Sequence record: SRR20825010_6282
Length of the DNA: 30,115 nucleotides
Strand: one strand, 5' to 3'
The first letter of the stretch is position 1. Every line of letters begins with the position of its first letter. Below, one piece after another: positions 1-25,818 of the stretch. The position numbers and the translations under genes were made by a program. The notes beneath the pieces were generated by a model. It searched no databases. It was not told the DNA's origin and was given only the letters and a program-made list of their open reading frames with translations.

Positions 1-155
1 CGACACGTTTGAAATCGGATGGTTCGAAATACTTGAGAGAACTTTGGTCTACACAAAGTAACTTTATCATGAAGGATTATTATTGTGCTGTAGGCAGTAT
101 GGCTGTTCAAAACATTTATGAAGACATACAACAAGAAATTAGAGATTACAATTAA
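1..155 (+). CDS. 3' end of an upstream gene of the locus (partial, unknown product; possibly a GT-B-fold protein)
   Basis: Frame 3 is open from the window edge to TAA at 153-155 (...TRLKSDGSKYLRELWSTQSNFIMKDYYCAVGSMAVQNIYEDIQQEIRDYN*). Same strand as the operon, ending 51 bp before pseB. Too short to assign. Confidence 0.55.
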   Translation, partial: TRLKSDGSKYLRELWSTQSNFIMKDYYCAVGSMAVQNIYEDIQQEIRDYN

Positions 156-206
156 AGCATGGCTTTGCTAAGCTTATAACTTTTGAAAGAAGATTAAGTC
201 GTTAAG

Positions 207-1214
207 ATGAAAAACAAAACAATCCTTATTACGGGTGGAACGGGCTCTTTGGGCAGGGCCTTAGCCTCACATATTCTTACGAACTTCCCTGATGTGAAAA
301 AGCTCATCATATTTAGTCGAGATGAACAGAAACAGTTTCAAATGGCCCAAGAGTTTCCTGAGTCTGAGTATCCACAAATTCGATTTTTCATAGGAGATGT
401 ACGTGACTATGAGCGTTTAAAAAGAGCATTTCAACAGGTTGATCTTGTCATACACGCGGCCGCTATGAAGCATGTACATATTGCAGAATACAACCCAGAA
501 GAATGTATTAAGACAAATATAGATGGGGCTCAGAATGTAATCAATGCCTGCTTAGCCACCAATGTACAAAGGGTAGTGGCCCTCTCTACGGATAAGGCCT
601 GTGCACCAATTAACTTATATGGAGCTACAAAGCTTACTTCGGATAAGCTGTTTATTGCTGCCAATAATATTAAGGGTACTAATCCTATAAGGTTCTCTGT
701 AGTACGCTACGGAAATGTAATGGGATCAAACGGGTCGGTTATTCCATTTTTTATTAATAAAAAGCCGACCGGTATTTTGCCGATTACAGACCTTCATATG
801 ACCCGCTTTAACATCAGTTTACAAGGAGGGGTAGACATGGTAATGCACGCATTGGAAAATGCCTTAGGAGGTGAATTATTTGTACCAAAAATACGATCTT
901 ATCGTATCCTAGATGTAGCCGAAGCTGTTGGTCCAGAGTGTGAGAAGCCGATCATTGGAATACGCCCAGGAGAAAAAGTACATGAAGAGATGATTACATC
1001 CTCAGATTCATATAACACCTATGACTTGGGTAAATACTACGTGATTGTACCGACTGTACCTGCTCGCCCTTTAAAAGAATTCTTAGAGCAAAATAACCAT
1101 AAGAAAGTTGAGGAAGGATTTAGTTATACTTCTGATAAGAATACTGACTGGGAAACGATTGAAAGTTTACGTGCTTTGATTATTGAACACGTGGATCCTG
1201 GTTTTAAGGTTTAA
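207..1214 (+). CDS. pseB: UDP-N-acetylglucosamine 4,6-dehydratase (inverting)
   Basis: TGGTGSLG Rossmann motif, FSRDEQKQ, HAAAMKHV, ALSTDKACAPINLYGATKL (YxxxK), VRYGNVMGSNGSV, GIRPGEKVHE; 335 aa soluble; followed by pseC. Confidence 0.95.
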   Translation: MKNKTILITGGTGSLGRALASHILTNFPDVKKLIIFSRDEQKQFQMAQEFPESEYPQIRFFIGDVRDYERLKRAFQQVDLVIHAAAMKHVHIAEYNPEECIKTNIDGAQNVINACLATNVQRVVALSTDKACAPINLYGATKLTSDKLFIAANNIKGTNPIRFSVVRYGNVMGSNGSVIPFFINKKPTGILPITDLHMTRFNISLQGGVDMVMHALENALGGELFVPKIRSYRILDVAEAVGPECEKPIIGIRPGEKVHEEMITSSDSYNTYDLGKYYVIVPTVPARPLKEFLEQNNHKKVEEGFSYTSDKNTDWETIESLRALIIEHVDPGFKV

Positions 1215-2419
1215 TGAGCGTTAACATTCCATATGGCCGACAAAACATCACCGATGAAGATATTCAAGCGGTAGTTGACGTATTAAAGTCTGATTACCTT
1301 ACCCAAGGGCCGGAGATATTTAAGTTTGAAAAGGCATTTGCCGATTATGTAGGAAGTAAATATGCAGTGGCTGTAGCCAATGGTACAGCAGCGCTGCACC
1401 TATGCACGTTAGCACTTGGTGTAAAAGAAGGGGACAAGGTGATCACAACTCCAATTACTTTTGCTGCATCGGCAAATTGCGTCCGTTATTGTGGAGGTGA
1501 AGTGATTTTTGCGGATATCAACCCTGATACTTACTTACTAGATATTAATAAGGTAAAGACCCTCTTGGGGTCTTCCCCTAAAGGAACATACCAAGGAATT
1601 ATCCCTGTAGATTTTGCTGGGAGGGCTAATGATTTGGAAGCATTTCGTTTTTTAGCCGATGAGTATGATTTATGGATCATAGAGGATGCCTGTCACGCTC
1701 CAGGAGGATACCTTACTGATTTAAAAGCAATAAGTCAAAATTGTGGAAATGGCAACTTTGCTGATTTAGCAATCTTTTCGTTCCATCCAGTGAAACATAT
1801 TGCAGCTGGTGAGGGAGGAATGATTACCACCAATGACAAAACCCTCTATGAAAAACTGTTGATGTTGCGCACCCATGGCATCACGAAAGATACTTCCCAA
1901 TTTCAGAACAGCATTGAGCTAGCGGTAGGTGCTACCCAATACCCAGTACCCAATACCCAGTACCCTGCATGGTACATGGAAATGCAAGCCTTAGGTTATA
2001 ACTACCGCTTGACCGACTTCCAGGCGGCTTTGGGTTTAAGCCAACTGAAAAGAGCAGAAGCTGGACTAGTAAGAAGAAAAGAGATTGCAAAAACCTATTT
2101 TGAAGCCTTTAAAGGAAAACCGTTTATTAAGGGGCAATCTGGAGTGGTTGAAGGTCATGCCTATCATCTCTACGTGATTGAGGTTGAAGATCGTTTGGGA
2201 CTGTATAATTTCTTAAGGTCAAAAAATATCTTTGCCCAAATTCACTATATCCCTTGTCATCTTATGCCCTATTATCGACAGTATGGTTGGAACGAAGGTG
2301 ATATGCCATTTGCTGAAAAGTATTATTCTCAATGTTTGAGTCTGCCCATGTACCCAACATTAGCGGATAGTGAATTAGAGTTCGTAATTGATACCATACT
2401 TAGTTTTTATGAAATCTAG
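1214..2419 (+). CDS. pseC: UDP-4-amino-4,6-dideoxy-N-acetyl-beta-L-altrosamine transaminase (DegT family)
   Basis: IPYGRQNI...LTQGP N-terminus, NGTAALHL, IEDACHA, SFHPVKHI (PLP Lys), GEGG, WYMEMQALGYNYRLTD; TAATG overlap with pseB. Confidence 0.93.
   Translation: MSVNIPYGRQNITDEDIQAVVDVLKSDYLTQGPEIFKFEKAFADYVGSKYAVAVANGTAALHLCTLALGVKEGDKVITTPITFAASANCVRYCGGEVIFADINPDTYLLDINKVKTLLGSSPKGTYQGIIPVDFAGRANDLEAFRFLADEYDLWIIEDACHAPGGYLTDLKAISQNCGNGNFADLAIFSFHPVKHIAAGEGGMITTNDKTLYEKLLMLRTHGITKDTSQFQNSIELAVGATQYPVPNTQYPAWYMEMQALGYNYRLTDFQAALGLSQLKRAEAGLVRRKEIAKTYFEAFKGKPFIKGQSGVVEGHAYHLYVIEVEDRLGLYNFLRSKNIFAQIHYIPCHLMPYYRQYGWNEGDMPFAEKYYSQCLSLPMYPTLADSELEFVIDTILSFYEI
1933..1965 (+). repeat. Heptamer tandem repeat (TACCCAR)x4.7 inside pseC
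   Basis: tacccaa tacccag tacccaa tacccag taccc read directly; encodes TQYPVPNTQYP. Confidence 0.9.
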
Positions 2420-3080
2420 TCAAAAAGAGGCCTTTTTGGCCTATGAAGCCAATGCTTGGTTCGAAAGAAACTTTAAAGTTATTTCTAATTATTCACCTGA
2501 TAATGATCGAGTAGTTGGTTTGATTGAAGAATATGGACTGAAACCAACAAGTGTATTGGAGATAGGCTGTTCTGCTGGGTATCGTTTAGAAGGAATTAGA
2601 TCTCGGATTTCAGGGTGCAATGTTCATGGTGTTGAGCCGTCTACACAAGCTATTGATTACGGCAGATCTCACTACCCGAAGGTCAATTTTTTAAATGGGA
2701 CAGCGGATGATTTGAGTGAGTATGGAGATGAATCAATGGACATTGTCATTGTAGGTTTTGTTTTTTATGTTGTGGATAGAGCAATACTTTTCAAAGTGAT
2801 TGCTGAGATAGATAGAGTTTTAAAGAATGGTGGAGTTTTGATTATTGTGGATTTCTTTTCAGAGAAAACACTTATGAATGCCTATCACCACATTCAAAAC
2901 TTTAGTGCCTTTTCTTTTAAGCAGAATTACGATGAGGTATTTACAGCCTCAAAATTGTATTACCTGCTGGATAAGTCGACCTGGAGTCATTCAGAAAAAG
3001 GGCGTGACGCTTCAGATGATTATCACAACAAGTACAGCATATCGTTATTGAAGAAGGACACTAGTGCAAGCTATAAGTAA
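2409..3080 (+). CDS. Class I SAM-dependent methyltransferase (Pse-cluster associated)
   Basis: VLEIGCSAG motif I, GVEPS, DIVIVGFVFY, RVLKNGG. ATG at 2409 (MKSSQK) preferred over the TTG at 2388. Confidence 0.85.
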   Translation: MKSSQKEAFLAYEANAWFERNFKVISNYSPDNDRVVGLIEEYGLKPTSVLEIGCSAGYRLEGIRSRISGCNVHGVEPSTQAIDYGRSHYPKVNFLNGTADDLSEYGDESMDIVIVGFVFYVVDRAILFKVIAEIDRVLKNGGVLIIVDFFSEKTLMNAYHHIQNFSAFSFKQNYDEVFTASKLYYLLDKSTWSHSEKGRDASDDYHNKYSISLLKKDTSASYK

Positions 3081-3936
3081 ACTTGTCTTAGGTACAGTTC
3101 AATTTGGGTTGAACTATGGTGTCAATAATAAATTGGGGCAAATGACTGTTCCTGACGCTCATAAAATCCTCGATTTAGCACTGAATGTTGGTATTAGGAC
3201 TTTGGATACAGCAGCAGCTTATGGTTCGTCAGAACAGGTGATTGGAGATTATATTAAGTCGAAGGATCAAAACCCGTTCAATATTATCACAAAGCTCGCT
3301 TTGAAGAATGGAAAAACTTGGGAAAGCTCACTTGAGAATAGCTTTAGGAATTTAGGTGTGGAAAGTATTGACACCCTAATGTTTCATTCTTACAGAGATT
3401 ATTTAGAAACTAGGGGAGAGATTCAAGAAATTTTAGTTGCTCAAAAAGGTATAAAATTTCAAAAGCTAGGAGTTTCAGTATATACAAATGAGGAATTGGA
3501 AGCTGTGGCTCCCGATAGAATCATTGACTTGGTTCAGTCACCCTTCAATCTTTTGGATAATCATCTCCACCGATCTGATGCATTAATGAAATGCAAGGAG
3601 CATAACAAACAAGTGCACACGAGGTCTGCATTTTTACAAGGTCTTTTCTTTATGAAAGCAAATTATATTCCTGAAAAACTAAAGCCGCTTAGCAAGGAAA
3701 TAGAAGCTGTAAAAGCCATTTCAGAAAAAGCAGGAGTGAGTATTGGTGCTTTGGCGCTGAACTATGCGCTTTCGAAACCTTATATTGATGGGGTATTAAT
3801 TGGGGTAGACAGCTTAAAGCAATTAGAGCAGAATCTGCAATGGGCACAAACTCAAAACCTAGAATCATATTTTGAAATGATTGACAACTTAATGGTTCAA
3901 GAAACGGCTTTGCTTAACCCCGTAAACTGGAGCTGA
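3064..3936 (+). CDS. Aldo/keto reductase
   Basis: LVLGTVQFGLNYG, LDTAAAYGSSE (Asp/Tyr), IITK (Lys), LMFH (His), GVSVY, QSPFNLLD, RSAFLQGL; GTG start. Confidence 0.88.
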   Translation: MQAISKLVLGTVQFGLNYGVNNKLGQMTVPDAHKILDLALNVGIRTLDTAAAYGSSEQVIGDYIKSKDQNPFNIITKLALKNGKTWESSLENSFRNLGVESIDTLMFHSYRDYLETRGEIQEILVAQKGIKFQKLGVSVYTNEELEAVAPDRIIDLVQSPFNLLDNHLHRSDALMKCKEHNKQVHTRSAFLQGLFFMKANYIPEKLKPLSKEIEAVKAISEKAGVSIGALALNYALSKPYIDGVLIGVDSLKQLEQNLQWAQTQNLESYFEMIDNLMVQETALLNPVNWS

Positions 3937-4694
3937 TGAATGTGACAATTGTAACTCAGGCTAGAATTGGGAGCTCTAGGTTGTCTGGTAAAATATTAAA
4001 AAGGATAAATGACCAGAGTTTACTTGAAATTCATCTTTCACGATTAAAGAAATCAAAACTTGCGACAAAGATTATTGTGGCTACTACTTTTGAGTCAGGT
4101 ATAGAAGAGGTTCTGGGAATAGGAAAGAAAATGGAGGTGGATGTATTCCAAGGCGCTACAGACGATGTGTTGGATAGGTTTTATCAAAGCGTCAAAGACT
4201 TTGCACCAGATTATATTGTTAGGGTAACTTCAGACTGCCCTTTAATTGATCCTGACTTAGTAGACAAGGTAATAGAAATGGTAAAGGTAGAAGATCTGGA
4301 CTATGCCTCTAATGGCCTCAAAGAGTTATATCCTGATGGACAAGACGTTGAAGTGTTTTCTTTTAAGGCGTTAAAAAAAGCTTGGGAGGAAGCTAAACTT
4401 CAATCTGACAGAGAGCATGTGACTCCCTATATTCGAAAGAATAGTGATTTTATGGGGGGCTACTTTTTTAAGGCGCAGAATCTGGGTTGCGAAAAAGATT
4501 ACAACCAAATTAGAATGACTGTCGATGAGCCAGACGATTTTGAAGCAATTGAAACGTTGATTAATGAGTTAGGAGCAAATGAGCCTTGGCAAACATATAC
4601 ACAGTATATACTAGAGCATTCTGATAAATTCAAGAATCAGTCTATTTATAGAAATGAAGGATATTTAAAGTCGTTGCAAAAAGATAATTTATAA
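3936..4694 (+). CDS. spsF: SpsF-type cytidylyltransferase (probable CMP-nonulosonate synthetase, PseF role)
   Basis: QARIGSSRLSGKIL, DVLDRF, RVTSDCPLIDP, REHVTPYI, RMTVDEPDD are typical SpsF-family motifs; TGATG overlap with the upstream gene. Confidence 0.85.
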   Translation: MNVTIVTQARIGSSRLSGKILKRINDQSLLEIHLSRLKKSKLATKIIVATTFESGIEEVLGIGKKMEVDVFQGATDDVLDRFYQSVKDFAPDYIVRVTSDCPLIDPDLVDKVIEMVKVEDLDYASNGLKELYPDGQDVEVFSFKALKKAWEEAKLQSDREHVTPYIRKNSDFMGGYFFKAQNLGCEKDYNQIRMTVDEPDDFEAIETLINELGANEPWQTYTQYILEHSDKFKNQSIYRNEGYLKSLQKDNL

Positions 4695-4698
4695 TACA

Positions 4699-6009
4699 AT
4701 GGGTAAAGGGCAAGCACTTTATAAAAAAGCAAAAACGTTGATCCCAGGAGGGACAATGCTATTATCGAAAAGACCAGAAATGTTCTTACCTGAAAAATGG
4801 CCTTCATACTTCAGCAAGGCCAAAGGCTGTCAAGTTTGGGACCTAGACGATAATCAGTATTTAGATATGTCCATCATGGGGATCGGTACGAATATTCTAG
4901 GCTATGGGAATGAAACGGTTGATGATGAAGTACGTAGGGTAGTGACACAAGGCAATATGTCAACTCTAAATTGCCCTGAAGAAGTTTATTTAGCCGAAAA
5001 ATTAGTCGAATTACATCCATGGGGTGATATGGTAAGGTTGGCACGAAGTGGTGGTGAAGCCAACGCAATAGCCATTCGCATCGCTAGAGCCGCATCAGGT
5101 AAAGATAAAGTGGCCATTTGTGGTTATCATGGTTGGCATGACTGGTATCTTTCTGCAAATCTAGGAGATGCTGCTGGTTTAGACGGACATTTATTACCAG
5201 GCCTGAATCCAGGTGGAGTCCCTCGGAACTTAAAGAATACCGTGCTTCCGTTTAATTACAATGATATTGAAGGCTTAAAGGCTTTGGTTCAGAATAACCC
5301 TGATTTAGGAGTTATTAAAATGGAAGTATCCAGAAATATGGGGCCTGAGAATAATTTTTTACATGAGGTTAGAAGTTTAGCGACTAAAAATGGGATAGTA
5401 TTAGTTTTTGATGAGTGTACTTCTGGTTTTAGACAGACTTTTGGTGGTTTACATAAGATGTATGGGGTGGAACCAGACATGTGTATGTTCGGTAAAGCTT
5501 TAGGTAACGGTTATGGTATTACTGCTGTTTTGGGCAGGCGTTCAGTGATGGAAGCCGCTCAGAAAACATTTATCAGCAGTACTTTTTGGACAGAAAGAAT
5601 AGGGCCAACAGCAGCATTGGCAACATTGGAAGTAATGGCGAAAACTAAGTCATGGGAAACCATTACTGAAATTGGCCTCGATATTACACAACGATGGGCT
5701 GATTTAGGTGTGAAATACAATCTCGATATCAATACGGCAGGCTTACCAGCCCTTACCTCTTTTTCGATAGCTTCTGAAGACTGGTTGAAATATAAAACCT
5801 TTATCACCCAAGAGATGCTTAAAAAGGGTATTCTGGCTTCAAATAGTGTATATGTTTGCACAGAACATAAGCCTGAATTTGTAAACCGCTATTTTGATGA
5901 GCTAGAATCCATTTTCAATACTATATCAGATTGCCAAAAGGGTGAAATCGATATAAATTCATTGTTAGAAAGCCCCGTTTGTCATGGTGGCTTTAAGAGG
6001 TTGAATTAG
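4699..6009 (+). CDS. Class III PLP-dependent aminotransferase (glutamate-1-semialdehyde aminomutase-like)
   Basis: KAKGCQVWDLD, SGGEANAIAIRIARA, CGYHGWHDW, VFDECTSGFR, FGKALGNG (PLP Lys). Context argues against a haem-pathway hemL role. Confidence 0.88.
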   Translation: MGKGQALYKKAKTLIPGGTMLLSKRPEMFLPEKWPSYFSKAKGCQVWDLDDNQYLDMSIMGIGTNILGYGNETVDDEVRRVVTQGNMSTLNCPEEVYLAEKLVELHPWGDMVRLARSGGEANAIAIRIARAASGKDKVAICGYHGWHDWYLSANLGDAAGLDGHLLPGLNPGGVPRNLKNTVLPFNYNDIEGLKALVQNNPDLGVIKMEVSRNMGPENNFLHEVRSLATKNGIVLVFDECTSGFRQTFGGLHKMYGVEPDMCMFGKALGNGYGITAVLGRRSVMEAAQKTFISSTFWTERIGPTAALATLEVMAKTKSWETITEIGLDITQRWADLGVKYNLDINTAGLPALTSFSIASEDWLKYKTFITQEMLKKGILASNSVYVCTEHKPEFVNRYFDELESIFNTISDCQKGEIDINSLLESPVCHGGFKRLN

Positions 6010-6012
6010 TCA

Positions 6013-6573
6013 ATGCACAGAGAATACAAAGTTTTAGATAATCAGGTTTTCACTGATGGGGAGTATTCGCTCGTTCCAATTCGAGAACAAGATCGGTACG
6101 ATATCATGCAGTGGCGAAACGAACAGATTTATCATTTACGTCAAGCCGAACCGTTGACTAAGGTGCAACAGGATGCCTATTTTGACAATGTAATAAGTAG
6201 TCTTTTTGAGCAACAGAAGCCACAACAAATTTTATTTTCCTTTCTAAAGAAGGATGAATGCATTGGATATGGAGGCCTAGTTCATATCAATTGGCTAGAC
6301 AAGAATGCTGAAATTTCTTTTATAATGAATACCGAACTTGAAGAAGACTTCTTTAAGTCGAATTGGAAAATGTTTCTGACTTTAATAGAATCAATTGCTT
6401 TCAGGGAATTGAATTTGCACAAAATAGTAACTTATGCTTTTGACTTGAGACCACAAATTTATATCATTTTTGAGCAAAGTGGCTTTAAAAAGGAAGCTAG
6501 GCTTAAAGAACATGTCTTCTATAATGGTGATTATATCGATGTTGTGATTCACGGAAAATTAAACAAAAATTGA
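6013..6573 (+). CDS. GNAT (RimJ/RimL-like, PseH-related) N-acyltransferase
   Basis: IMQWRNEQ, IGYGGLVHINW, AFRELNLHKI, GFKKEARLKEH. Confidence 0.8.
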   Translation: MHREYKVLDNQVFTDGEYSLVPIREQDRYDIMQWRNEQIYHLRQAEPLTKVQQDAYFDNVISSLFEQQKPQQILFSFLKKDECIGYGGLVHINWLDKNAEISFIMNTELEEDFFKSNWKMFLTLIESIAFRELNLHKIVTYAFDLRPQIYIIFEQSGFKKEARLKEHVFYNGDYIDVVIHGKLNKN

Positions 6574-6577
6574 TTTT

Positions 6578-7117
6578 ATGGATATTGAGTTAATAAAGCT
6601 TTCATTGGATGATATTGAGCAAGTTAGGGTCTGGAGGAATAGCCCAAATGTTGCCTCCTATATGTATAATGAGAGAGAGATTTCTCCTAGCGATCAACGT
6701 AATTGGTTTAACAGTATAAATGAAGAGAAATCACGCTATTGGCTCATTTCCTATGATGAAAAGAAAATAGGTCTAGCAAGTGTTACAGGTATTGATCATA
6801 CTTTGCAAAGTTGTTATTGGGCTTTTTATCTTGGAGAAAGCTCTGTGCGCGGTGCTGGTATTGGCGCTAAAGTAGAGTATAATGTTCTAGAGTATGTGTT
6901 CAATGAACTTAAGTTAAACAAGCTGAGGTGTGAAGTTTTTGTTGACAATGACAAGGTGATTAAAATGCACGAAAAGTTCGGTTTTAGAAGAGAGGCCTAT
7001 TACCGAGAGCATTGTGTAAAGGAGGGTAAGAAGTTGGATGTAGTTGGCCTAGCCATTCTGAAGTCAGAATGGGATCGTTTGAAGTCATTTCAAAAAAAGG
7101 CAATATATGGAGAATAA
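6578..7117 (+). CDS. pseH: UDP-4-amino-4,6-dideoxy-N-acetyl-beta-L-altrosamine N-acyltransferase (PseH, GNAT)
   Basis: VRVWRNSPNVASYMY, CYWAFYLG, GIGAKVEY, KLRCEVFVDNDKVIKMHEKFGF match the PseH pattern; lies in the pse cluster. Confidence 0.85.
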   Translation: MDIELIKLSLDDIEQVRVWRNSPNVASYMYNEREISPSDQRNWFNSINEEKSRYWLISYDEKKIGLASVTGIDHTLQSCYWAFYLGESSVRGAGIGAKVEYNVLEYVFNELKLNKLRCEVFVDNDKVIKMHEKFGFRREAYYREHCVKEGKKLDVVGLAILKSEWDRLKSFQKKAIYGE

Positions 7118-7517
7118 GGTTACAGTAAATTCCGTGTTTGAGTATGAATTTTCGTTCAATCAGACAGATGTTGAAAATTTCGCAAAGGCATCTGGAGACT
7201 TTAATCCCATTCACCTGGATGCAGAATACGCAAAAAAAACCATTTTTGGGCGTACAATTATACACGGCTTTCTAAGCGGAAGTATGTTCTCAAAGGTATT
7301 TGGTACTATCTTTCCAGGACATGGCACGATTTATTTAAATCAAAGTTTGAATTTTTTTAAGCCTATGTATACAGTAGAAGAGTACAAGGCGGTCTTTACA
7401 GTGAAGGAAGTTTATATTGAGAAACATAGAGCATTAATTACTACAGAAATATTTGATAGCCATAATCAAGTTACAATTTCTGGAGAAGCATTGATACAGC
7501 ACAATGATATTGCGTAA
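7107..7517 (+). CDS. MaoC/PhaJ-family (R)-specific enoyl-CoA hydratase
   Basis: FAKASGDFNPIHLDAEYAKKTIFGRTIIHG hydratase motif (D...H), FPGHGTIYLNQSLNFFKP; 136 aa hot-dog fold. Confidence 0.9.
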   Translation: MENKVTVNSVFEYEFSFNQTDVENFAKASGDFNPIHLDAEYAKKTIFGRTIIHGFLSGSMFSKVFGTIFPGHGTIYLNQSLNFFKPMYTVEEYKAVFTVKEVYIEKHRALITTEIFDSHNQVTISGEALIQHNDIA

Positions 7518-8550
7518 CCACATAATAGATAACCAATCACCTGTTTTTATAATAGCAGAGCTTTCTGCTAATCATAACGGAAGTTTAGAAACGGCTATTG
7601 AAACAATTCATGCTGCCAAAAGGGCTGGAGCGGACGCGATTAAACTCCAAACCTATACTGCGGATACAATTACCATTGATTGCGACAAAGATGACTTTGT
7701 TATAAAGGACACGATCTGGGGAGGGAGAAAGCTATATGATCTTTATAAAGAAGCCTATACCCCTTGGGAGTGGCACAAGCAGCTTTTCGAAGTAGCTGAA
7801 AAGGAAGGCTTGGTTTGTTTTTCATCACCATTTGATAAAACAGCAGTTGATTTTTTAGAGAGCTTGGATGTTCCTGCTTATAAAATAGCTTCTTTTGAGA
7901 TCACGGATATTCCATTAATTCAATATGTTGCTTCAAAGGGCAAACCGGTCATTATTTCTACTGGAATTGCAGAGCAGCCTGATATCGAATTGGCACTGGA
8001 TGCCTGTAGAAGAATGGGAAATAATGATATTGCGTTATTGAAGTGTACTTCTAGCTATCCTGCACCAATCAATGAAGCCAATATGATAATGGTAAAGGAT
8101 TTGGCAGAGCGTTATGGAGTGATTTCTGGTCTTTCGGATCATACCATGGGGGCAACAGTACCTATTGTAGCCACCTGTTTTGGTGCAAAAATTATTGAAA
8201 AACATTTCATACTCGATCGATCAATTGGTGGTCCAGATGCATCTTTTTCTATGAATGAAGAAGAATTTACGGCCATGGTAAAATCAGTTAGAGAGGCAGA
8301 AATGGCCATTGGTAAAGTAGATTATACTTTAACCGAAAAGCAGCATAAGGGAAAGGAGTTTTGTCGATCACTTTATGCGGTGAAGGACATTAAGTCCGGA
8401 GACATAATTACCGAAGAAAATGTAAGAAGCATCAGGCCGGGTTTTGGCTTGCACCCTAAATACTTAAATAAAATTTTAGGTACAAAAATTATGGCTGATG
8501 TTGATAGGGGCGAGGCCCTTAGTCCAGATCTGTTTGACTTTATCTCTTAA
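7504..8550 (+). CDS. pseI: Pseudaminic acid synthase (NeuB family)
   Basis: IIAELSANHNGS, KLQTYTADTIT, TPWEWH, YKIASFEITD, LKCTSSYP, GLSDHT, IEKHF, and a C-terminal SAF domain (RSLYAVKDIK...IRPGFGL). Confidence 0.95.
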   Translation: MILRNHIIDNQSPVFIIAELSANHNGSLETAIETIHAAKRAGADAIKLQTYTADTITIDCDKDDFVIKDTIWGGRKLYDLYKEAYTPWEWHKQLFEVAEKEGLVCFSSPFDKTAVDFLESLDVPAYKIASFEITDIPLIQYVASKGKPVIISTGIAEQPDIELALDACRRMGNNDIALLKCTSSYPAPINEANMIMVKDLAERYGVISGLSDHTMGATVPIVATCFGAKIIEKHFILDRSIGGPDASFSMNEEEFTAMVKSVREAEMAIGKVDYTLTEKQHKGKEFCRSLYAVKDIKSGDIITEENVRSIRPGFGLHPKYLNKILGTKIMADVDRGEALSPDLFDFIS

Positions 8551-8566
8551 TCATTCACTTGTTCAA

Positions 8567-9940
8567 ATGTCTATTGTTTTAATTCCGGGCGGTATACCTT
8601 TAACTACTAAAGTACATAACCTGCTCTCTGCGGATGATTTGGTATTTATAGATAATTGGTTCTATTCTGACTGGTCAAATAAAGGGCAATTCAAGTTGAT
8701 GATTAAAGATGTGCTTTATAATGAAATGAAGCTACCTAAGGTCAATCAAAGTGGGGTGACTGGTAGCTTAAATTATGAAGAGATGCTATCGTTTGTCTTT
8801 AACGATTACAACCTTTGGCATATCCTTGAGCGAAAGGATAATTTTGAAAGCCTATATGATTCAGATATTTTAGTGGAAAGATTAGCCGTTTTCGCCTTGT
8901 CTATTCTGAAGCAAAATGAAATTTGCAGGGTAATTATTTTTGAAACACCACATGCTCCATTCGATTATGTTTTTTGTAGAGTAGCAGAATATTTAAAAAT
9001 AGAAGTGAACGTAATTAAACAATCTGCAATTCCGTGGAGGAGTTTGATTACAAAAGGTATTCAAGGTAATGACCGCATTAAGTTGCCCTATGAAGGGGAT
9101 AGTTCCCACGATAGAAAATTATTGAACGATTATCTCCTCACCAAAACCACATCCTATGAAAGCGCGATACCAACCTATGAAAAGGAGAGGTATGATAAGT
9201 TCAAAGGGAAAATATGGAGTTGGAAAGTAGAACTGAATAAGGTGCTTATAAAAAGAGATAAAAACATCCCCATTTCTTTTCTAGAATCCAGATCAAAGTA
9301 TAAATCATATAGACGATATGTTGAATGTGAGGCAGCCTATGATTCTAACAAAAGAAACGTGGTATTCTTCCTTCATTATCAACCCGAAAGGACCACTTTA
9401 CCCGAAGGAGGTATTTTTAATCAGCAATTTCTTGCGATAAAGCAGCTGAGGCAGATTTTACCGAACGATGTTACTATATATGTGAAGGAGCACCCTTCCA
9501 CGTATAGAAATTTTTTCAAGTACAAGACACGGACTAAAAAGTTCTATGAGACGATTAGCGCTTTAACCAATGTTAAACTTGTTTCGATGGAGACAAATAC
9601 TTTTGAGTTAATAGATCATTCGTTATTTGTGGCCACCATTACAGGCACCGTTGCAATTGAAGCGGCATGCAGAGGAAGAGTATCGGTTTATTTTGGTAAT
9701 TCAGTGTACCAGAACCTTCCTGGTACTATTCGTTTTAATGAATTATTAGGAAGTGCTACATTAATGGAAGCGGTCGTAAATCAAAAGCACGATTTTGAGT
9801 TTTCTGATGTGGAAGAATACTTTTGCGAATTGCTTCATTATAGTGCTGGTAATTTAAGTAGTAATAAGGAATATTATTCGGGAAATGATTACTATAATTC
9901 AGCCGCCAGTTGTCTCGCGTATTTGTTGCTCAACAGATAA
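8567..9940 (+). CDS. KpsS/capsule-synthesis-family protein; candidate CMP-nonulosonate (pseudaminyl) transferase
   Basis: FFLHYQPE, YVKEHP, TITGTVAIEAACRG...VYFG motifs resemble the KpsS/KpsC-like family; directly after pseI. ATG 8567 preferred because 8498 overlaps pseI by 53 bp. Confidence 0.7.
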   Translation: MSIVLIPGGIPLTTKVHNLLSADDLVFIDNWFYSDWSNKGQFKLMIKDVLYNEMKLPKVNQSGVTGSLNYEEMLSFVFNDYNLWHILERKDNFESLYDSDILVERLAVFALSILKQNEICRVIIFETPHAPFDYVFCRVAEYLKIEVNVIKQSAIPWRSLITKGIQGNDRIKLPYEGDSSHDRKLLNDYLLTKTTSYESAIPTYEKERYDKFKGKIWSWKVELNKVLIKRDKNIPISFLESRSKYKSYRRYVECEAAYDSNKRNVVFFLHYQPERTTLPEGGIFNQQFLAIKQLRQILPNDVTIYVKEHPSTYRNFFKYKTRTKKFYETISALTNVKLVSMETNTFELIDHSLFVATITGTVAIEAACRGRVSVYFGNSVYQNLPGTIRFNELLGSATLMEAVVNQKHDFEFSDVEEYFCELLHYSAGNLSSNKEYYSGNDYYNSAASCLAYLLLNR

Positions 9941-9978
9941 AAATAATATTGATTAATGTCCATTCATATATTTCAAAT

Positions 9979-10788
9979 ATGACGGAAAACGAACCGTTTT
10001 TTTCAATTGTAACTTCCGTATATAATCGGTCACACAGTATAGTTCGAACTTTAGAATCGATTAGAATTCAGCAGAATATTGCCTATGAGGTGATTTTGGT
10101 TGACGATTGCTCAAGTGATGATAGTATTGATGTAATACGTAATTATATTTCGGAATATGACCTTCCGTGGCAGGTGGTAACTTCTGATATTAATCGTGGC
10201 TACCTTACGGCAGTCAATAAGGGCGTAAGTCTCTGTAAGGGAGGCTTTGTAATCCCGATGGATTCGGATGACTATTTCCCAGATGAAGATACTTGCCATG
10301 AGATGATGGAAATTATTTTATCCCATACAGGCCAAGAGCTATTCATGTTTAGGTGTATAACGGAAGACGGAGATAAGTTATCAAACAATCCAGAATTCAA
10401 TGGAGTGTTGTCATTTAAGGATTATTTTTCTAGAAAGGTGAGTGGCGAGTACTTGCCAGTTCCAAGCCTGAAATCCTTTAGGGAATCACCATTTAATGAA
10501 AAATTGAGACTAGGCTCGGGGTTGACATGGAGGAAAATAGCAGAAAGGACTGGTTCAGTATATATAAGCTCATTTGTAGCAAGGGTATATGATAATACCG
10601 GAGAAGATCGTTTGAGTCAGCCAGGTAAGGCCTATTTAGAGAATACACTCAAATACTGCTTGACAGATTTGAGGATGAACCTGCATAACTATCTGAAATA
10701 CGACATTAGGAGAGGATTTAAACTCTTAAAAAAGATTGTTAGCCTAAAAAAGCAACTGTTGAAGCTAAGCGCCAATAAGGGTAGTTAG
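9979..10788 (+). CDS. Glycosyltransferase family 2
   Basis: FSIVTSVYN, ILVDDCSSD, NRGYLTAVNKG, MDSDD (DxD). ATG 9979 preferred over TTG 9910. Confidence 0.88.
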   Translation: MTENEPFFSIVTSVYNRSHSIVRTLESIRIQQNIAYEVILVDDCSSDDSIDVIRNYISEYDLPWQVVTSDINRGYLTAVNKGVSLCKGGFVIPMDSDDYFPDEDTCHEMMEIILSHTGQELFMFRCITEDGDKLSNNPEFNGVLSFKDYFSRKVSGEYLPVPSLKSFRESPFNEKLRLGSGLTWRKIAERTGSVYISSFVARVYDNTGEDRLSQPGKAYLENTLKYCLTDLRMNLHNYLKYDIRRGFKLLKKIVSLKKQLLKLSANKGS

Positions 10789-16710: not shown

Positions 16711-17460
16711 ATGAATGTAGCCATAATCACTGCCCGTGCGGGCAGTAAATCCATCATCAATAAGAATATTTTAGAGGTAAAGGGTAAACCCCTGATCTAC
16801 TACCCAATTAAGGCATCGTTGGATGCGCTTAAAATTGACAAAGTTTTTGTATCAACCGATGGTGAGGGCATAGCTGAGGCCGCAGAGAAATATGGGGCTA
16901 CCGTTATTCCTCGTCCAGATGAATTGGGGGGCGACAGTATTAATCATGGCGAGGTCATCAAGCATGCAGTGGAATGGGTAGATCAACGTTATGAAAACCT
17001 TGAGAATGTGGTTTTACTGCTTGGGAATACGGTTTATATTGATGGTGGTATCATTGATAAATGCCTCCAGAAACTCGATGATGAGAAGAACCTCGATTCC
17101 TGCATGACCGTCTGGGAAGCACAGGATGATCACCCACTAAGGGCAATGGAAATTGCGGAAAATGGTCTTTTAAGGCCTTATGGCAACGTAGAGCGTAATG
17201 TGTCAACAGAAAGGCAGTCTTATCAAAAAGCCTATTATTACGATCAAGGAGTATGGGCTTTTAGGAAATATACAGTTCAAAGCCATGATGGACCGAATCC
17301 GTGGTGGTGGATGGGTAAAAATTCGGCTCCTATTATTCGTACCTGGGTTACGGGTCGTGATATCCATACCTATTTCGATGTAGGGATTAGTGAATGGTGG
17401 CTTGAAGGATTGGATAAAATAAAGGAAGTACTGAGTAAATCTTCCGAAGATGGCTTATAG
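16711..17460 (+). CDS. Acylneuraminate/Kdo-type cytidylyltransferase (divergent NeuA-like)
   Basis: IITARAGSKSIINKN, VSTD, RPDELGGD; the usual LQPTSPLR is replaced by LLGNTVYI. Confidence 0.8.
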   Translation: MNVAIITARAGSKSIINKNILEVKGKPLIYYPIKASLDALKIDKVFVSTDGEGIAEAAEKYGATVIPRPDELGGDSINHGEVIKHAVEWVDQRYENLENVVLLLGNTVYIDGGIIDKCLQKLDDEKNLDSCMTVWEAQDDHPLRAMEIAENGLLRPYGNVERNVSTERQSYQKAYYYDQGVWAFRKYTVQSHDGPNPWWWMGKNSAPIIRTWVTGRDIHTYFDVGISEWWLEGLDKIKEVLSKSSEDGL

Positions 17461-18376
17461 AATACTAACTACAACTTCTTCTTTCGGTAAAGTAGACCCA
17501 GCTCCTTTGGCCTTACTCAAAGCGAAGGGTTTTGAGGTAACAGTGAATCCTTATGGCAGAAAACTGTCTGAACAAGAATCAATAGAAATACTGAGTGACT
17601 ATGATGGTTTAATAGCTGGCACAGAATCGCTTAATGAAGAGGTGCTGAATGCCGCGAGAGACTTGAAATACCTGTGTAGGATGGGGGCAGGGATGGATAA
17701 TGTGGATTTCAATACAGCTAAAAGACTTAATATCACCGTTGAAAATACACCGAGTGCCCATGTAGATGGTGTCGCTGAGCTTACTCTTGGAGGTATTTTA
17801 TCTAGCCTGAGAAGTCTTGCTAACGCCCATACGAATATCACCAATGGTATTTGGGAAAAACCAATGGGCAGTTTGTTGAAGGGGAAAACGGTCGGTATTA
17901 TTGGCTTGGGGAGGGTCGGTTGCCGACTTGTTGAGTTACTTGCTCCTTTCAAAGTGAAGGTCTTGGCCTTTGATTTATATGAAAATCCTGAGTTTGCTGA
18001 AAAACAGAATGTAGCCTATGTAGCCATCGATGAATTGATCAGGGCATCAGATATTATCAGTATTCACACGCCTTTTTCACCGGAGGCCAAGCATATGGTC
18101 AGTACAGAGTTTTTCACCAAAGCTAAGAGGAACCTGTGTTTGGTGAACGCATCACGTGGCGGTTTGGTAAATGAGGATGCATTACTTGAGTTTTTGAATT
18201 CAAATCCCACGGCTTCTGCTTATCTTGATACTTTCGAAGTAGAGCCATACATAGGGCCTTTAAGTAAATTAAAGAACTGCACACTTACTCCTCATATTGG
18301 TTCTTACGCCAGTGAAGTAAGAATTAATATGGAAATGGAAGCTGCACAAAATGTGATTAAATTCTTTAAAAAATAA
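17450..18376 (+). CDS. D-isomer-specific 2-hydroxyacid dehydrogenase (phosphoglycerate dehydrogenase-like, no ACT domain)
   Basis: RMGAGMDNVD, VAELTLG, GIIGLGRVG, NASRGG (Arg), FEVEP (Glu), TPHIGS (His); only 308 aa. Confidence 0.88.
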   Translation: MAYRILTTTSSFGKVDPAPLALLKAKGFEVTVNPYGRKLSEQESIEILSDYDGLIAGTESLNEEVLNAARDLKYLCRMGAGMDNVDFNTAKRLNITVENTPSAHVDGVAELTLGGILSSLRSLANAHTNITNGIWEKPMGSLLKGKTVGIIGLGRVGCRLVELLAPFKVKVLAFDLYENPEFAEKQNVAYVAIDELIRASDIISIHTPFSPEAKHMVSTEFFTKAKRNLCLVNASRGGLVNEDALLEFLNSNPTASAYLDTFEVEPYIGPLSKLKNCTLTPHIGSYASEVRINMEMEAAQNVIKFFKK

Positions 18377-19251
18377 TGAGCAAAGTTTTAGTAACAGGAG
18401 GGTCAGGGTTTTTAGGTAGCCACATAGCCGATGCGCTTTCTGATATCGGGCATGAGGTTACTATTTTTGATCAGGTAGCATCACCCTTTTTGCGGAAGGA
18501 TCAAAGTTTCATTCATGGCGATATTCGTGAGGCTGAAAAACTTGTAAAGCAACTTTCAGGCTTTGAATATGTGTATCATTTAGCTGCCATGGCTGATTTG
18601 AATGCCGCCAAAAACCGTCCTGTAGATACAGTCTCAATAAATATTCAAGGCACAGTCAATATGCTTGAGGCTTGCAGAATCAATAAGGTTAAACGATTTG
18701 TTTTTGGCTCTACAGTATATGTATATAGTCGCGAAGGCAGCTTTTACCGGTGCAGTAAGCAAGCAAGCGAAAACTATGTTGAGGAATACTTCAATCAGTT
18801 TGGATTAGAATATACGATTCTCAGATACGGTAGCCTTTATGGACCCAGGGCCGATATGGCAAACGGAGTTTACCGTTTGCTGAAAAATTTCATGGATCAA
18901 GATGAAATGGAACATAGTGGTAAATCAAACGATAAGCGTGATTACATTCATGTCTTTGATGCTGCCAGATTAAGTGCTTCAATTCTAGATCCACAGTACG
19001 TCAATAAAAATTTAGTATTGACAGGAAATGATAAATTAGAGATTGCTGATTTGTATAAAATGTTCAGTGAAATTTTGGGCAAAGAAGTGAAAATTAGATT
19101 CTTGGGTGACGAAGGCACTACTAATGGACATTACAATATTACGCCTTACGCTTATACCCCGAAAATTGGTCACAAACTGGTTTCTAATGAATATGTAGAT
19201 ATGGGACAGGGGCTTATTCAAGTTATTGAAGAGATTGATTCGATTCACTGA
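18376..19251 (+). CDS. NAD-dependent epimerase/dehydratase (extended SDR)
   Basis: TGGSGFLG, YHLAA, NIQGTVN, YRCSK (YxxxK), LRYGSLYGP, RDYIHVFD; TAATG overlap with the upstream gene. Confidence 0.88.
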   Translation: MSKVLVTGGSGFLGSHIADALSDIGHEVTIFDQVASPFLRKDQSFIHGDIREAEKLVKQLSGFEYVYHLAAMADLNAAKNRPVDTVSINIQGTVNMLEACRINKVKRFVFGSTVYVYSREGSFYRCSKQASENYVEEYFNQFGLEYTILRYGSLYGPRADMANGVYRLLKNFMDQDEMEHSGKSNDKRDYIHVFDAARLSASILDPQYVNKNLVLTGNDKLEIADLYKMFSEILGKEVKIRFLGDEGTTNGHYNITPYAYTPKIGHKLVSNEYVDMGQGLIQVIEEIDSIH

Positions 19252-19308
19252 TTCTTTAAATAACAAAAGTTCTTTCGTTTCCCCACATTCAAACTCGTAT
19301 TCCTTTCA

Positions 19309-19971
19309 ATGACAATAAAACCAATTTCATATACAGAACTAAGAAATTACTCATGCATGTTCTTCGATTTTGACGGTGTGGTGTTAGAGTCAGCTAATAT
19401 AAAAACCGATGCTTTTGTAGAGCTATATGCAGGAACTGGTATTGAAGAGCAAGTAAGAGAACATCATTTGGCACATCAAGGCGTAGCGCGATATGAGAAG
19501 TTCAAGTGGATTTCTGAAAACCTGATAAAACAGGAGCATACTGAGGAAATCGGGCTTGAATTGGGAGATAAATTTTCAGGGCTAGTAAAGGCCAAAGTGT
19601 TAGCAGCACCGTTTGTTCCTGGTTTTCGTGAAATGATCACCTTTATCCGACAACAAAACATTTATTGTGTGGTAGCTTCTGGTACTCCCCAAGAAGAATT
19701 GAGAGATATTATTATAAATCGAAAACTAAGTCCATTCTTTGACGAAGTTTATGGCAGCCCGAGGAAAAAAGCTGAGATTACACTAGAAGTAATGCAAAGG
19801 AAACAGTTTAGAAAAGAAGATTGCCTCTTCTTTGGTGATGCAAGCACCGATCACCAAGCAGCGGAACAAACTAATATCGATTTCTTTGCCAGGTTAACCC
19901 CCGAACTTTTTGATTATTGGGAAAGTGCAACATATAAATATGGAGCACTTGACTTCTCAAAAATGCAATAG
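19309..19971 (+). CDS. HAD-superfamily hydrolase (phosphatase)
   Basis: FDFDGV (motif I), VASGT (II), GSPRKK (III), FGDASTD (IV). Confidence 0.88.
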   Translation: MTIKPISYTELRNYSCMFFDFDGVVLESANIKTDAFVELYAGTGIEEQVREHHLAHQGVARYEKFKWISENLIKQEHTEEIGLELGDKFSGLVKAKVLAAPFVPGFREMITFIRQQNIYCVVASGTPQEELRDIIINRKLSPFFDEVYGSPRKKAEITLEVMQRKQFRKEDCLFFGDASTDHQAAEQTNIDFFARLTPELFDYWESATYKYGALDFSKMQ

Positions 19972-23454: not shown

Positions 23455-24627
23455 ATGATAAATGAGAATAAGCGACCTCTCAAGTTGTTAAGGCTTACTA
23501 CCGTTCCAATGTCACTATCTCTTCTATTGAATGGTCAATTCTCTTATTTTAAGAGTGTTGGATTCAGTGTAGAAGTTGGATCAGCAGCAGGTCCAGAAAT
23601 AGAAAGCATAATTGATAATGAAAATGTAGTTCACCATCAATTTCCATTTAGTCGAGAAATCTCTCCGCTAAGAGATTTGAAAGCGCTGTTTCTCGTCATT
23701 AGGTTTTTGAAGAACAACACTTTTGATATCGTTCATACGCATACCCCTAAAGCGGGTTTAATTGGGATGTTGGCTGCCTGGTTTTGTAAGGTTCCTGTGC
23801 GTATGCATACCGTAGCGGGACTTCCGCTGATGGAAACCAAGGGTTTTAAAAGAAGAGTCTTGATGTTGGTTGAGCGCATAACTTACCGTTGTGCGACAAA
23901 GGTTTACCCCAATTCTTTTGCTCAGAGGGAATATATTAGCAAGAATATATTCTCTAAAAGTGTAAAACTGAAGGTCATAGGCAATGGGAGTAGTAATGGT
24001 ATTAATTGTGATTACTTTCGACCTTCTTCAGTGTTAATTGAAAAGGCAGAGCAGATTAGATCAGAGCTCAAAATTCCCTTCGATAAACATGTAGCAATTT
24101 TTGTTGGCAGGGTGACAGGTGATAAAGGTATTAATGAGCTTGTTAATGCTTTCAAAACGATTGAAGACTTGGATTTGATTTTGGTAGGACCTTTAGAATC
24201 AGAACTGAGTCCATTGGAAGCTTCTGTAATGAATGAGATTGAGGTAAACCCAAAAATACATTTGGTTGGTTTTCAATCAGATGTTCGCCCCTATTTATTG
24301 GCTAGCAACTTTTTGGTCTTCCCCAGTTATCGTGAAGGATTCCCTAATGCACCTATGCAAGCAGGTGCCATGGGCATACCTTGCATAGTAAGTAACATCA
24401 ATGGTTGTAATGAAATTATAATTAACGAGAAAAATGGTTTGCTCATACCTCCAAAGAATGTAGAAGATATAAGACGGGCAATCTTGCTGTTGGTAGAAGA
24501 ACCAACATTAATGGATTACTTAACACATAACGCAAGGCGAATGATTGTTGAACGATATGATCAGAAATTCCTTTGGGAAGCATTGCATTTAGAGTATCAG
24601 GACCAAATACAGAGATATGTACATTAA
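23455..24627 (+). CDS. Glycosyltransferase family 4 (CapM-like; probable second-sugar transferase)
   Basis: [58 protein letters not shown]. Confidence 0.9.
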
Positions 24628-25222
24628 ATACTTTAAACGTATCTTCGATTTTTGCGGGGCATTTCTTTTGTTATTATTCGCAAGTCCTCTCTTGGTAGTG
24701 GTGACTTTGTGGTTGAGTATTGTGAATTCTGGTCGACCATTTTTTTTTCAGCTCAGACCAGGTAAACATGAGAAGGTATTCAAAATTATAAAGTTTAAAA
24801 CGATGACAGATAAAAAGGATTCAAAGGGTACTTTGCTTCCTGACGATCAACGGTTGACAACTGCTGGTAATTGGGTAAGGAAACTGTCGATCGATGAGTT
24901 TCCTCAAATGATAAATGTTTTAATAGGAGATATGTCCCTAATTGGCCCGAGACCACTTTTAGTCGAATATTTACCTCTTTATTCTGAGGAACAACAGAGA
25001 AGGCATAACGTTCGCCCTGGTATTACTGGTTGGGCACAAGTTAATGGTAGAAATGCTCTAAATTGGAAAAGAAAGTTTGAAATGGATGTATGGTATGTTG
25101 ATCATGGTTCTTTTTTATTAGACTTGAGAATCTTGTTTTTGACAGTGAAAAAGGTGCTCCTTTCCGAAGGAATTAGTGGAGAAGGAGTAATGACAATGGA
25201 GAAATTTAAAGGTAATTTATGA
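24617..25222 (+). CDS. pglC: Undecaprenyl-phosphate sugar phosphotransferase (PglC-like initiating transferase)
   Basis: [48 protein letters not shown]; 201 aa monotopic type. Confidence 0.88.
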
Positions 25223-25818
25223 TCCTTATTGGAGCTTCTGGGCATGCAAAAGTCATATTGGATATTCTTGAACAGAATGGAGTTAATGTAGAGTGTCTGG
25301 TAGACGCTAATCCTAGCCTTACTTCCCTATGTGGATATACTGTGGAGCATGACTCCACTTTTGATTTTGAAGGAAAGGAAGCTATTCTGAGTATTGGGTC
25401 AAATAAAATTAGAGAAAAGCTTAGTGATTTACTGCCATGTACGTTTACAACTGCGATTCATCCTAAAGCAATTCTAGATAAGACGGTGAAGATTGGAGAA
25501 GGTACCGTGGTTATGGCCGGAGCTGTGCTTAATCGAGATGCTGCAGTAGGCAAGCATGTAATAATTAATACATCTGCATCTGTAGATCATGATAATCTTC
25601 TAAAAGATTATGTTCATATTAGTCCTAATGCTACCCTTTGCGGAACAGTAGCTGTTGGTGAAGGAACACATATTGGGGCTGGCGCTACAATAATTCCTAA
25701 TGTAAGTATAGGTAAATGGGCTATAATTGGAGCTGGTGCAGTCGTAATTAACGATATCCCAGACTATGCAGTTGCGGTAGGTAATCCGGCTAGAATAATT
25801 AGGTATATCAATGAGTAA
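25219..25818 (+). CDS. pglD: PglD/NeuD-family hexapeptide-repeat sugar acetyltransferase
   Basis: [25 protein letters not shown], hexapeptide repeats, VGNPAR. Confidence 0.88.

Follow-up and report, generated by a model that had tools for sequence, protein, structure and literature searches.

What do the additional enzymes encoded within a pseudaminic acid (Pse) operon contribute to the sugar that it makes? The question is raised by a 30,115-nt stretch of DNA from sequence record SRR20825010_6282, the whole of which is referred to here as the window, where calling of open reading frames (ORFs) reveals a surface-polysaccharide locus lying entirely on one strand. Ten of its genes, from pseB to pseI, run head to tail on the + strand (207-8550), and between pseC and pseH an original prediction, made from the sequence letters alone, had pointed to four tightly coupled genes that the canonical pathway would not lead one to expect:

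3064-3936, + strand: aldo-keto reductase (AKR), matching PF00248 at 122 bits
3936-4694, + strand: SpsF-like cytidylyltransferase (CT) of the CTP_transf_3 type, matching PF02348 at 114 bits and giving no PseF match
4699-6009, + strand: class III aminotransferase (AT) resembling glutamate-1-semialdehyde aminomutase (GSAM), matching PF00202 at 125 bits and the hemL model TIGR00713 at 190 bits (cut-off 527)
6013-6573, + strand: GNAT protein, matching PF13420 at 69 bits and the PseH model at 41 bits (cut-off 93)

The analysis confirms that all four are genuine, undamaged genes of a single operon, as had been proposed. The prediction held further that the AKR oxidizes a hydroxyl, that the AT aminates the resulting carbonyl and that the CT activates an extra-aminated, perhaps 8-amino, nonulosonic acid. 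We find that the window locus is an ordinary member of a widespread AKR-CT-AT cassette family, and comparison across that family indicates that the three enzymes work as one unit in a nonulosonate pathway. Our tentative reading, for which we would claim a little less than even confidence, is that the AKR, the SpsF-like CT and the AT form a conserved tailoring-and-activation unit by which one hydroxyl would be exchanged for an amino group, with C8 the favoured position. New here are the mutual exclusion of the AT and a short-chain dehydrogenase/reductase (SDR) as partners of the AKR, a variant that lacks PseG and carries tandem GNATs, and the degenerate acetyl-CoA site of the first of these GNATs.

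The AKR-CT-AT cassette

The enzymes of the cassette retain their catalytic residues. In the AKR the tetrad D48, Y53, K77 and H108 is kept, each residue matching one that is invariant across 17 aligned fusions; the protein shows 29-43% identity with the AKR domains found in CT-AKR-type fusions, and its closest relative in the PDB, IolS, scores only 51 bits. The CT carries a QARxGSSRLxGK motif at its N-terminus and matches PDB entry 6oew ('Cytidylyltransferase') at 128 bits. In the AT, the pyridoxal phosphate (PLP) lysine K266 and D238 align with GSAM. Judged by equivalog score the AT does not belong to HemL, though it has the HemL fold and PLP lysine, since it falls well below the cut-off of TIGR00713 and also below that of NF004856 (233 against 486 bits). 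Headed by GSAM (143 bits), its relatives in the PDB include the aminoglycoside C-6' aminotransferases 7lm0 and 7lld (112-114 bits), enzymes that aminate sugar carbonyls, a point in favour of amination.

The AT belongs to a large family, with at least 8000 scored candidates, all at E < 1e-20, and the 120 best matches are 71-92% identical to the window protein. In locus L001, from a Roseivirga sp. metagenome-assembled genome, the AT is 100% identical to that of the window, while in Roseivirga echinicomitans KMM 6058 (L002) it is 95% identical and the neighbouring proteins 87-97%. Both this strain and Aeromonas subgroup IA are cultured bearers of the cassette. A scan of one genome per species yielded 60 AT loci, whose hosts span the Bacteroidota, the Gamma-, Beta- and Alphaproteobacteria (including SAR11 and SAR116), Prochlorococcus, Leptospira, Verrucomicrobia, Marinimicrobia, Firmicutes and candidate phyla; Legionella-like and Aeromonas genomes are also among the carriers. 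Within a sample of 401 Bacteroidota genomes an AT ortholog occurs in 16, PseI above its cut-off in 50 and both together in 10. A CT-AKR fusion used as query found cassette matches in 18 of 400 sampled gammaproteobacterial genomes (including one unpublished, G050); in all 18 the AKR and a CT::AT fusion are separate genes, with no CT-AKR fusion among them, so that they had no bearing on the comparison of AT and SDR partners. Phage sequences gave little: tblastn with the AKR against 50,697 phage records returned two 23%-identical Staphylococcus matches alone, and viral contigs scanned with the CT-AKR fusion gave nothing.

Linkage to nonulosonate synthesis is close. Among the 37 AT loci that have at least 5 kb on both sides, the AKR and the CT are each neighbours in 34, a NeuB-family synthase in 33, and PseB and PseC in 28 each; two loci show none of these neighbours and have the most distant ATs (48-50% identity). 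The usual order is pseB-pseC-AKR-CT-AT-pseG(-pseH)-pseI, and the window presents AKR, CT and AT in this order between pseC and pseI with an orthologous AT, as members of the cassette family do. The window AT is 57-76% identical to those of about 40 loci from other phyla that share the order AKR-CT-AT, a conservation well above that of the AKR (24-49%) and the CT (34-58%). Fusions bind the three enzymes together still more tightly. CTP_transf_3::AT fusions of 656-688 aa account for 37 of the 120 best AT matches, and 40 long AKR homologs are all fusions (26 CT-AKR, nine AKR-CT, two AKR-CT-AT, two PseC-AKR and one GNAT-AKR-CT), so that with CT::AT included every pairing of AKR, CT and AT is seen; it is on these pairings that the proposal of one functional unit is based.

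The cassette is not uniform in its surroundings. A variant in a Marinobacterium flagellin-glycosylation island (L042:7398-13302) combines PseB (516 bits), AKR and CT::AT with an RmlD-like reductase and a divergent NeuB-family synthase that neither the PseI nor the NeuB model fits, and no DegT-type PseC, PseG or PseH occurs among the ten ORFs scanned there. Likewise, tblastn gave no PseC match in loci L011 and L015.

That the CT activates the sugar, as the original prediction supposed, is credible. The complete 6.9-Mb genome G005 has three PF02348 matches, namely the cassette CT, a distant gene at 177 bits, presumably KdsB, and a marginal match at 25 bits; since the other two are presumably KdsB or marginal, the cassette CT appears to be the sole credible candidate for the CMP-Pse synthetase of that organism.

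The AT and an EpaB-like SDR are alternative partners

Alignment of CT-AKR fusions allowed us to gather 80 metagenome loci, which with the 60 AT loci make a set of 140. The typical order in the metagenome loci is pseB-pseC-[CT-AKR]-[258-280 aa ORF]-pseG-pseH-pseI, and the ORF that follows CT-AKR is an SDR, matching PF13561 in all seven cases tested. A hidden Markov model built from these seven ORFs was run on all 140 loci, with partners counted within 3 kb of the AKR:

No AKR of the cassette family: 10 of 140 loci
AKR with AT within 3 kb: 47 of 130 loci
AKR with EpaB-like SDR within 3 kb: 59 of 130 loci
AKR with both AT and SDR: 0 of 130 loci
AKR with neither partner despite room: 8 of 130 loci
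AKR with neither partner, a contig end intervening: 16 of 130 loci

In three of the eight loci with room and neither partner an AT is present more than 3 kb away. The AKR of the window has no EpaB-like SDR within 3 kb, nor has that of any of the 47 AT loci; the AT occupies the slot. Across these loci the AT and the EpaB-like SDR are thus, to judge by gene content, clearly alternative and mutually exclusive partners in the same slot, a pattern that fits one keto intermediate common to both types of locus and processed in two ways. What the loci have in common would be the AKR and the CT, with the SDR partner leading to an epimer and the AT partner to an amine.

Relation to characterized systems

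The closest experimental precedent is the pair EpaA (CTP_transf_3 and AKR) and EpaB (an adh_short_C2 SDR) of Acinetobacter baumannii prophages, which convert Pse5Ac7Ac to its 8-epimer, as shown by nuclear magnetic resonance of the capsule (PMC12053666). By analogy this would place the AKR-CT pair at C8 chemistry. As in EpaA, a CTP_transf_3 CT is paired in the window with an AKR of the same subfamily that has an intact tetrad, the gene for a further enzyme adjoins the pair, and the Acinetobacter enzymes act on pseudaminic acid. In contrast to the prophage genes, the partner in the window is a class III AT rather than an adh_short_C2 SDR, the AKR and CT are separate and in the order AKR then CT, and both lie inside the pse operon, replacing PseF, where EpaA/EpaB are a prophage add-on. 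These comparisons were made with fusions of the same architecture and not with the EpaA and EpaB sequences themselves.

The same genes have been recorded in Aeromonas. Group I polar-flagellin islands are there given the order pseB-pseC-[aldo/keto reductase]-pseF-[class III aminotransferase]-pseG-pseI, the equivalent of the cassette CT being named pseF by the authors (PMC7874193). The gene order is that of the window, and subgroups ID and IE are also without pseG; these gammaproteobacterial islands serve flagellin glycosylation with a Maf transferase (PMC7874193), unlike the window, which is a polysaccharide locus of the Bacteroidota where glycosyltransferase genes are accompanied by PglC/D/E/F-like ones. 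In that account, the sole mention of the AT that was found, no function is assigned to the cassette genes, which have been recorded in the Vibrio literature too, again with none assigned. The sole mention of the SpsF-AKR pair (PMC7371886) is likewise without a function, and none was found for the AKR-CT-AT cassette in the literature searched. The statement in the original prediction that no characterized pathway is known thus needs qualifying, given the partly characterized relative EpaA/EpaB (PMC12053666) and a cassette already described, if without a function, in Aeromonas (PMC7874193).

Two further enzyme pairs offer partial parallels. In the aminoglycoside 6'-dehydrogenase and C-6' aminotransferase pairs, an oxidoreductase makes the sugar carbonyl that a class III AT then aminates; the cassette differs in that the aminoglycoside oxidase, a flavoenzyme, works on a primary alcohol, and the similarity of the AT to the aminoglycoside enzymes is no closer than to GSAM. 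KdnB and KdnA of Shewanella, reportedly a metal-dependent alcohol dehydrogenase and an aminotransferase of a different family, are said to form 8-amino-3-deoxy-D-manno-octulosonic acid (8-amino-Kdo). Here, as proposed for the cassette, a hydroxyl on the tail of a 2-keto-3-deoxy acid sugar would become first a ketone and then an amine, whereas the enzyme families are other ones and the sugar has eight carbons. The existence of 8-amino-Kdo (Kdo8N) is itself on record (PMC3210612).

Measured against the canonical CMP-Pse5Ac7Ac pathway, the window agrees in PseB, PseC, PseH and PseI, all above their cut-offs, and departs from it in having no PseG match and no PseF above cut-off and in the additional genes that it has for the AKR, AT, methyltransferase, degenerate GNAT and MaoC protein. 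A CT without homology to PseF has a precedent in FlmC of Caulobacter, which completes a six-enzyme pathway reconstituted in Escherichia coli (PMC7591256).

A proposed route to an 8-amino nonulosonic acid

As regards substrate, direction of the AKR, position attacked and amine product, we infer the following route. The CT would make the CMP-sugar in place of PseF, while the AKR with NAD(P)+ would oxidize a secondary hydroxyl of the nine-carbon sugar, free or in its CMP form, to a ketone, C8 beside the C7 amide being the likeliest site. The AT would then turn this ketone into an amine to give a 5,7,8-triamino nonulosonic acid such as that of the Tenacibaculum (Flexibacter) maritimum O-antigen, and the neighbouring methyltransferase may modify the product. 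Several considerations favour C8. EpaA/EpaB act at this position, and only a C8 ketone would adjoin the C7 nitrogen. GSAM interconverts alpha-amino carbonyls and vicinal diamines, a chemistry that would suit a 7-amido-8-keto centre. The AT remains 59-69% identical in loci that keep PseB and whose NeuB is merely 30-34% identical to PseI; as PseB sets the C8-C9 tail, this conservation pattern would fit action of the AT on the PseB-derived tail. Finally, T. maritimum has an 8-amino nonulosonic acid to which no genes are assigned. The literature bears out the original prediction as to this sugar (PMC3210612), and in 2022 the genes for it were still unknown (PMC9796276); the O-antigen paper lists no NeuB-type gene in the O-antigen locus of the type strain.

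EpaA/EpaB and the exclusivity of AT and SDR make the predicted sequence of oxidation followed by transamination more plausible than it was when proposed, while the amine and its placement at C8 are to be read as the inferred part of that proposal. Several points weigh against it. AKRs normally reduce in vivo, and if the AKR is a reductase in EpaA/EpaB then the cassette is left without an oxidase. The loci on which the exclusivity is based were picked by two queries, the AT and the CT-AKR fusion, and are not an unbiased sample. Many cassette loci, such as those of Aeromonas subgroup IA, carry no obvious extra enzyme to cap a new amine. The literature searched gives no product for any verified cassette-bearing strain, and T. 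maritimum is the sole example of a triamino sugar found in it, where such sugars would be expected to be common. No mechanism is offered for EpaA/EpaB in the paper that describes them, in which neither 'keto' nor 'oxidation' occurs as a word (PMC12053666). Finally AciE, a relative of EpaB, alters C8 as a single added gene (PMC5595891), which leaves the role of the AKR open to question. The flagellin sugar of Aeromonas hydrophila AH-1, a strain that may or may not carry the cassette, offers at 403 Da a lead rather than evidence: its odd mass would, by the nitrogen rule, imply an odd nitrogen count, but by mass an amino substitution cannot be told from an acetamidino group.

Should the proposal hold, extra-aminated and less acidic 'bacterial sialic acids' would be widespread, since roughly one in five Pse-bearing Bacteroidota genomes has the cassette, as do abundant marine bacteria. 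Pseudaminic-type sugars on flagella, capsules and O-antigens shape phage attachment, immune recognition and serotype. An 8-amino product would connect genes with a structure that has been known since 2003 and explain why some 'PseF' enzymes reject plain Pse5Ac7Ac, and loci could be read by a simple rule in which an SDR partner signifies an epimer and an AT partner an amine.

Alternative explanations

It is unlikely that the AT and AKR remodel an N-acyl substituent rather than the sugar backbone, either by way of alpha-aminoacyl to alpha-ketoacyl to alpha-hydroxyacyl groups (glyceroyl, lactyl or 2-hydroxyglutaryl) or from acetoacetyl to 3-hydroxybutyryl. The AKR would then act in its usual reducing direction, and GSAM-like active sites bind alpha-amino carbonyls, as textbooks have it. 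A MaoC gene adjoins the GNAT genes in the window. Hydroxyacyl groups are common, with 3-hydroxybutyryl and 2-hydroxyglutaryl in T. maritimum (PMC3210612) and glyceroyl in Tannerella forsythia, whose 'PseF' Tanf_01200 scores 37 bits against Campylobacter jejuni PseF and is inactive on plain Pse5Ac7Ac. Minimal loci speak against such remodelling: L009 and L025, both pseB-pseC-AKR-CT-AT-pseG::pseH-pseI, and Aeromonas subgroup IA have no aminoacyl ligase, while the recurrent fusion to the CT and the parallel with EpaA/EpaB point to the sugar itself as the substrate. T. forsythia could bear on the choice, since the neighbouring genes Tanf_01195 and Tanf_01205, called unrelated to carbohydrate metabolism, would, if they are the AKR and AT, set the T. 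forsythia product Pse5Am7Gra against 8-amination.

Rather less probable is redox tailoring without net amination, in which the cassette would alter C8 (alternatively C7 or C4) in configuration or in oxidation state, much like EpaA/EpaB, and the AT would act only transiently or as an epimerase-type enzyme. The sole experimental relative, EpaA/EpaB, does yield an epimer, and the class III fold is said to include racemases and epimerases. However, a PLP enzyme cannot oxidize an alcohol, the AT keeps the transaminase Lys and Asp and is closest to GSAM and the sugar aminotransferases, and the finding that SDR and AT never occur together suggests that their outcomes differ.

We give still less weight, indeed very little, to the assembly of a separate activated substituent, in which a small derivative of an amino alcohol or amino acid would be linked to CMP or CDP, with reductase and cytidylyltransferase combined as in CDP-ribitol synthesis, and added to the glycan afterwards. 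The conservation of the AT, far above that of the AKR, the CT and the sugar synthases, is what a small universal substrate might produce, and a second CT in the window (16711-17460) could activate Pse. In G005, however, the cassette CT is the sole candidate for CMP-Pse synthesis; the cassette moreover adjoins a NeuB-family synthase in most loci and lies between pseC and pseG, and the EpaA architecture acts on Pse. Least probable of all is an AT that backs up or replaces PseC at the hexose stage on a UDP-4-keto sugar, with the AKR handling a by-product: some loci (L042, L015 and L011) do lack a DegT-type PseC, yet 28 of 37 loci, the window among them, have PseC, which would make such an AT redundant, and known 4-keto-hexose aminotransferases are of the DegT family.

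A degenerate GNAT and the absence of PseG

A part of the original prediction that finds no support is the capping of the new amine by the second GNAT. The protein encoded at 6013-6573 has the GNAT fold (PF13420) without the acetyl-CoA pyrophosphate loop Q/R-x-x-G-x-G/A, reading EEDFFKSNW where PseH-type sequences have VRGAGIG; the loop is likewise missing from four aligned orthologs, and an alignment with SpeG agrees. The gene is confined to few cassette loci, following the AT in six of the 60, with a seventh, weak match (31%, L055) upstream of the CT gene, and it is found in genomes without PseG. On these sequence features a role in capping a new amine is unlikely, and the methyltransferase encoded between pseC and the AKR, a gene that recurs at this place in 12 of the 60 AT loci by tblastn, is the better candidate for modifying the product.

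In two loci the GNAT is fused N-terminally to a PseH-like GNAT (L013:11312-12310 and L028:11308-12336). None of the five whole genomes that carry it, L001 and R. echinicomitans included, has a PseG match (TIGR03590) above cut-off, nor was PseG found among the 20 window ORFs scanned against NCBIfam, the other ten having been scanned with Pfam only. By its sequence the protein would thus be classed as a degenerate GNAT-fold protein in the slot usually held by PseG. In the genomes that carry it, UDP removal would have to proceed without a recognizable PseG. Two candidate substitutes were rejected by profile comparison, which detects no PseG-like domain in either the 480-aa ORF that follows pseI (hhalign probability 0.4%) or the GNAT (1.2%). 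A broader proposition, that the cassette is the genetic basis of 5,7,8-triamino nonulosonic acids as a major overlooked class of surface sugars and that in the Roseivirga variant the degenerate GNAT replaces or bypasses PseG, is possible, but we regard it with more doubt than belief.

The remainder of the locus

The other six genes of the operon are as follows:

207-1214, + strand: PseB, inverting UDP-GlcNAc 4,6-dehydratase, TIGR03589 at 498 bits (cut-off 408)
1214-2419, + strand: PseC, DegT-type aminotransferase, TIGR03588 at 453 bits (cut-off 424)
2388-3080, + strand: S-adenosylmethionine-dependent methyltransferase, PF08241 and PF13649, with a weak match of 32 bits to the Pse-associated methylase model TIGR03587
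6578-7117, + strand: PseH N-acetyltransferase, TIGR03585 at 147 bits (cut-off 93), RGAGIG loop present
7107-7517, + strand: MaoC-type (R)-hydratase/dehydratase, PF01575 at 64 bits
7504-8550, + strand: PseI, pseudaminic acid synthase, TIGR03586 at 522 bits (cut-off 340)

The gene layout originally described thus holds, to which are added the methyltransferase between pseC and the AKR gene and the MaoC gene between pseH and pseI. Across 207-8550 neighbouring genes either overlap, by 1-32 nt, or stand 3-4 nt apart, and promoter-like and terminator-like sites in window positions 1-10000 show no excess over shuffled controls. The MaoC gene overlaps both pseH and pseI; its product may supply an (R)-3-hydroxyacyl-CoA donor for N-acylation, and in Aeromonas group III islands an 'acyl dehydratase' gene also adjoins a GNAT gene.

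Family scans of the window ORFs place glycosyltransferases, methyltransferases and an AsnB-like amidotransferase 3' of pseI. Directly after pseI, the 480-aa ORF at 8498-9940 matches Capsule_synth (KpsS/KpsC-like) weakly and falls into no NCBIfam family; it is a candidate pseudaminic acid transferase. The locus ends with PglC-, PglD-, PglE- and PglF-like genes (24617-28848), so that its glycan probably begins with a bacillosamine-type sugar, a class also present in the T. maritimum O-antigen. The bacillosamine-type genes, together with a 2-hydroxyacid dehydrogenase and the AsnB-like gene, are compatible with a T. maritimum-like polymer and too unspecific to count towards one.

A separate module at 16711-19971 comprises a PseF-like CT, a D-2-hydroxyacid dehydrogenase, an SDR/epimerase and a HAD phosphatase. 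Its CT (16711-17460) matches the PseF model TIGR03584 at 110 bits, below the cut-off of 206, and single genes of the module have weak matches (25-43% identity) near the cassette in L013, L019 and L055. In the nearest relative genome, G001, a further NeuB-family gene lies about 5-6 kb upstream of the position where the window starts (contig C4:14570-15526), its product scoring 217 bits against the PseI model, below cut-off; because of this additional synthase gene just upstream, the Roseivirga organism may make a second nonulosonic acid.

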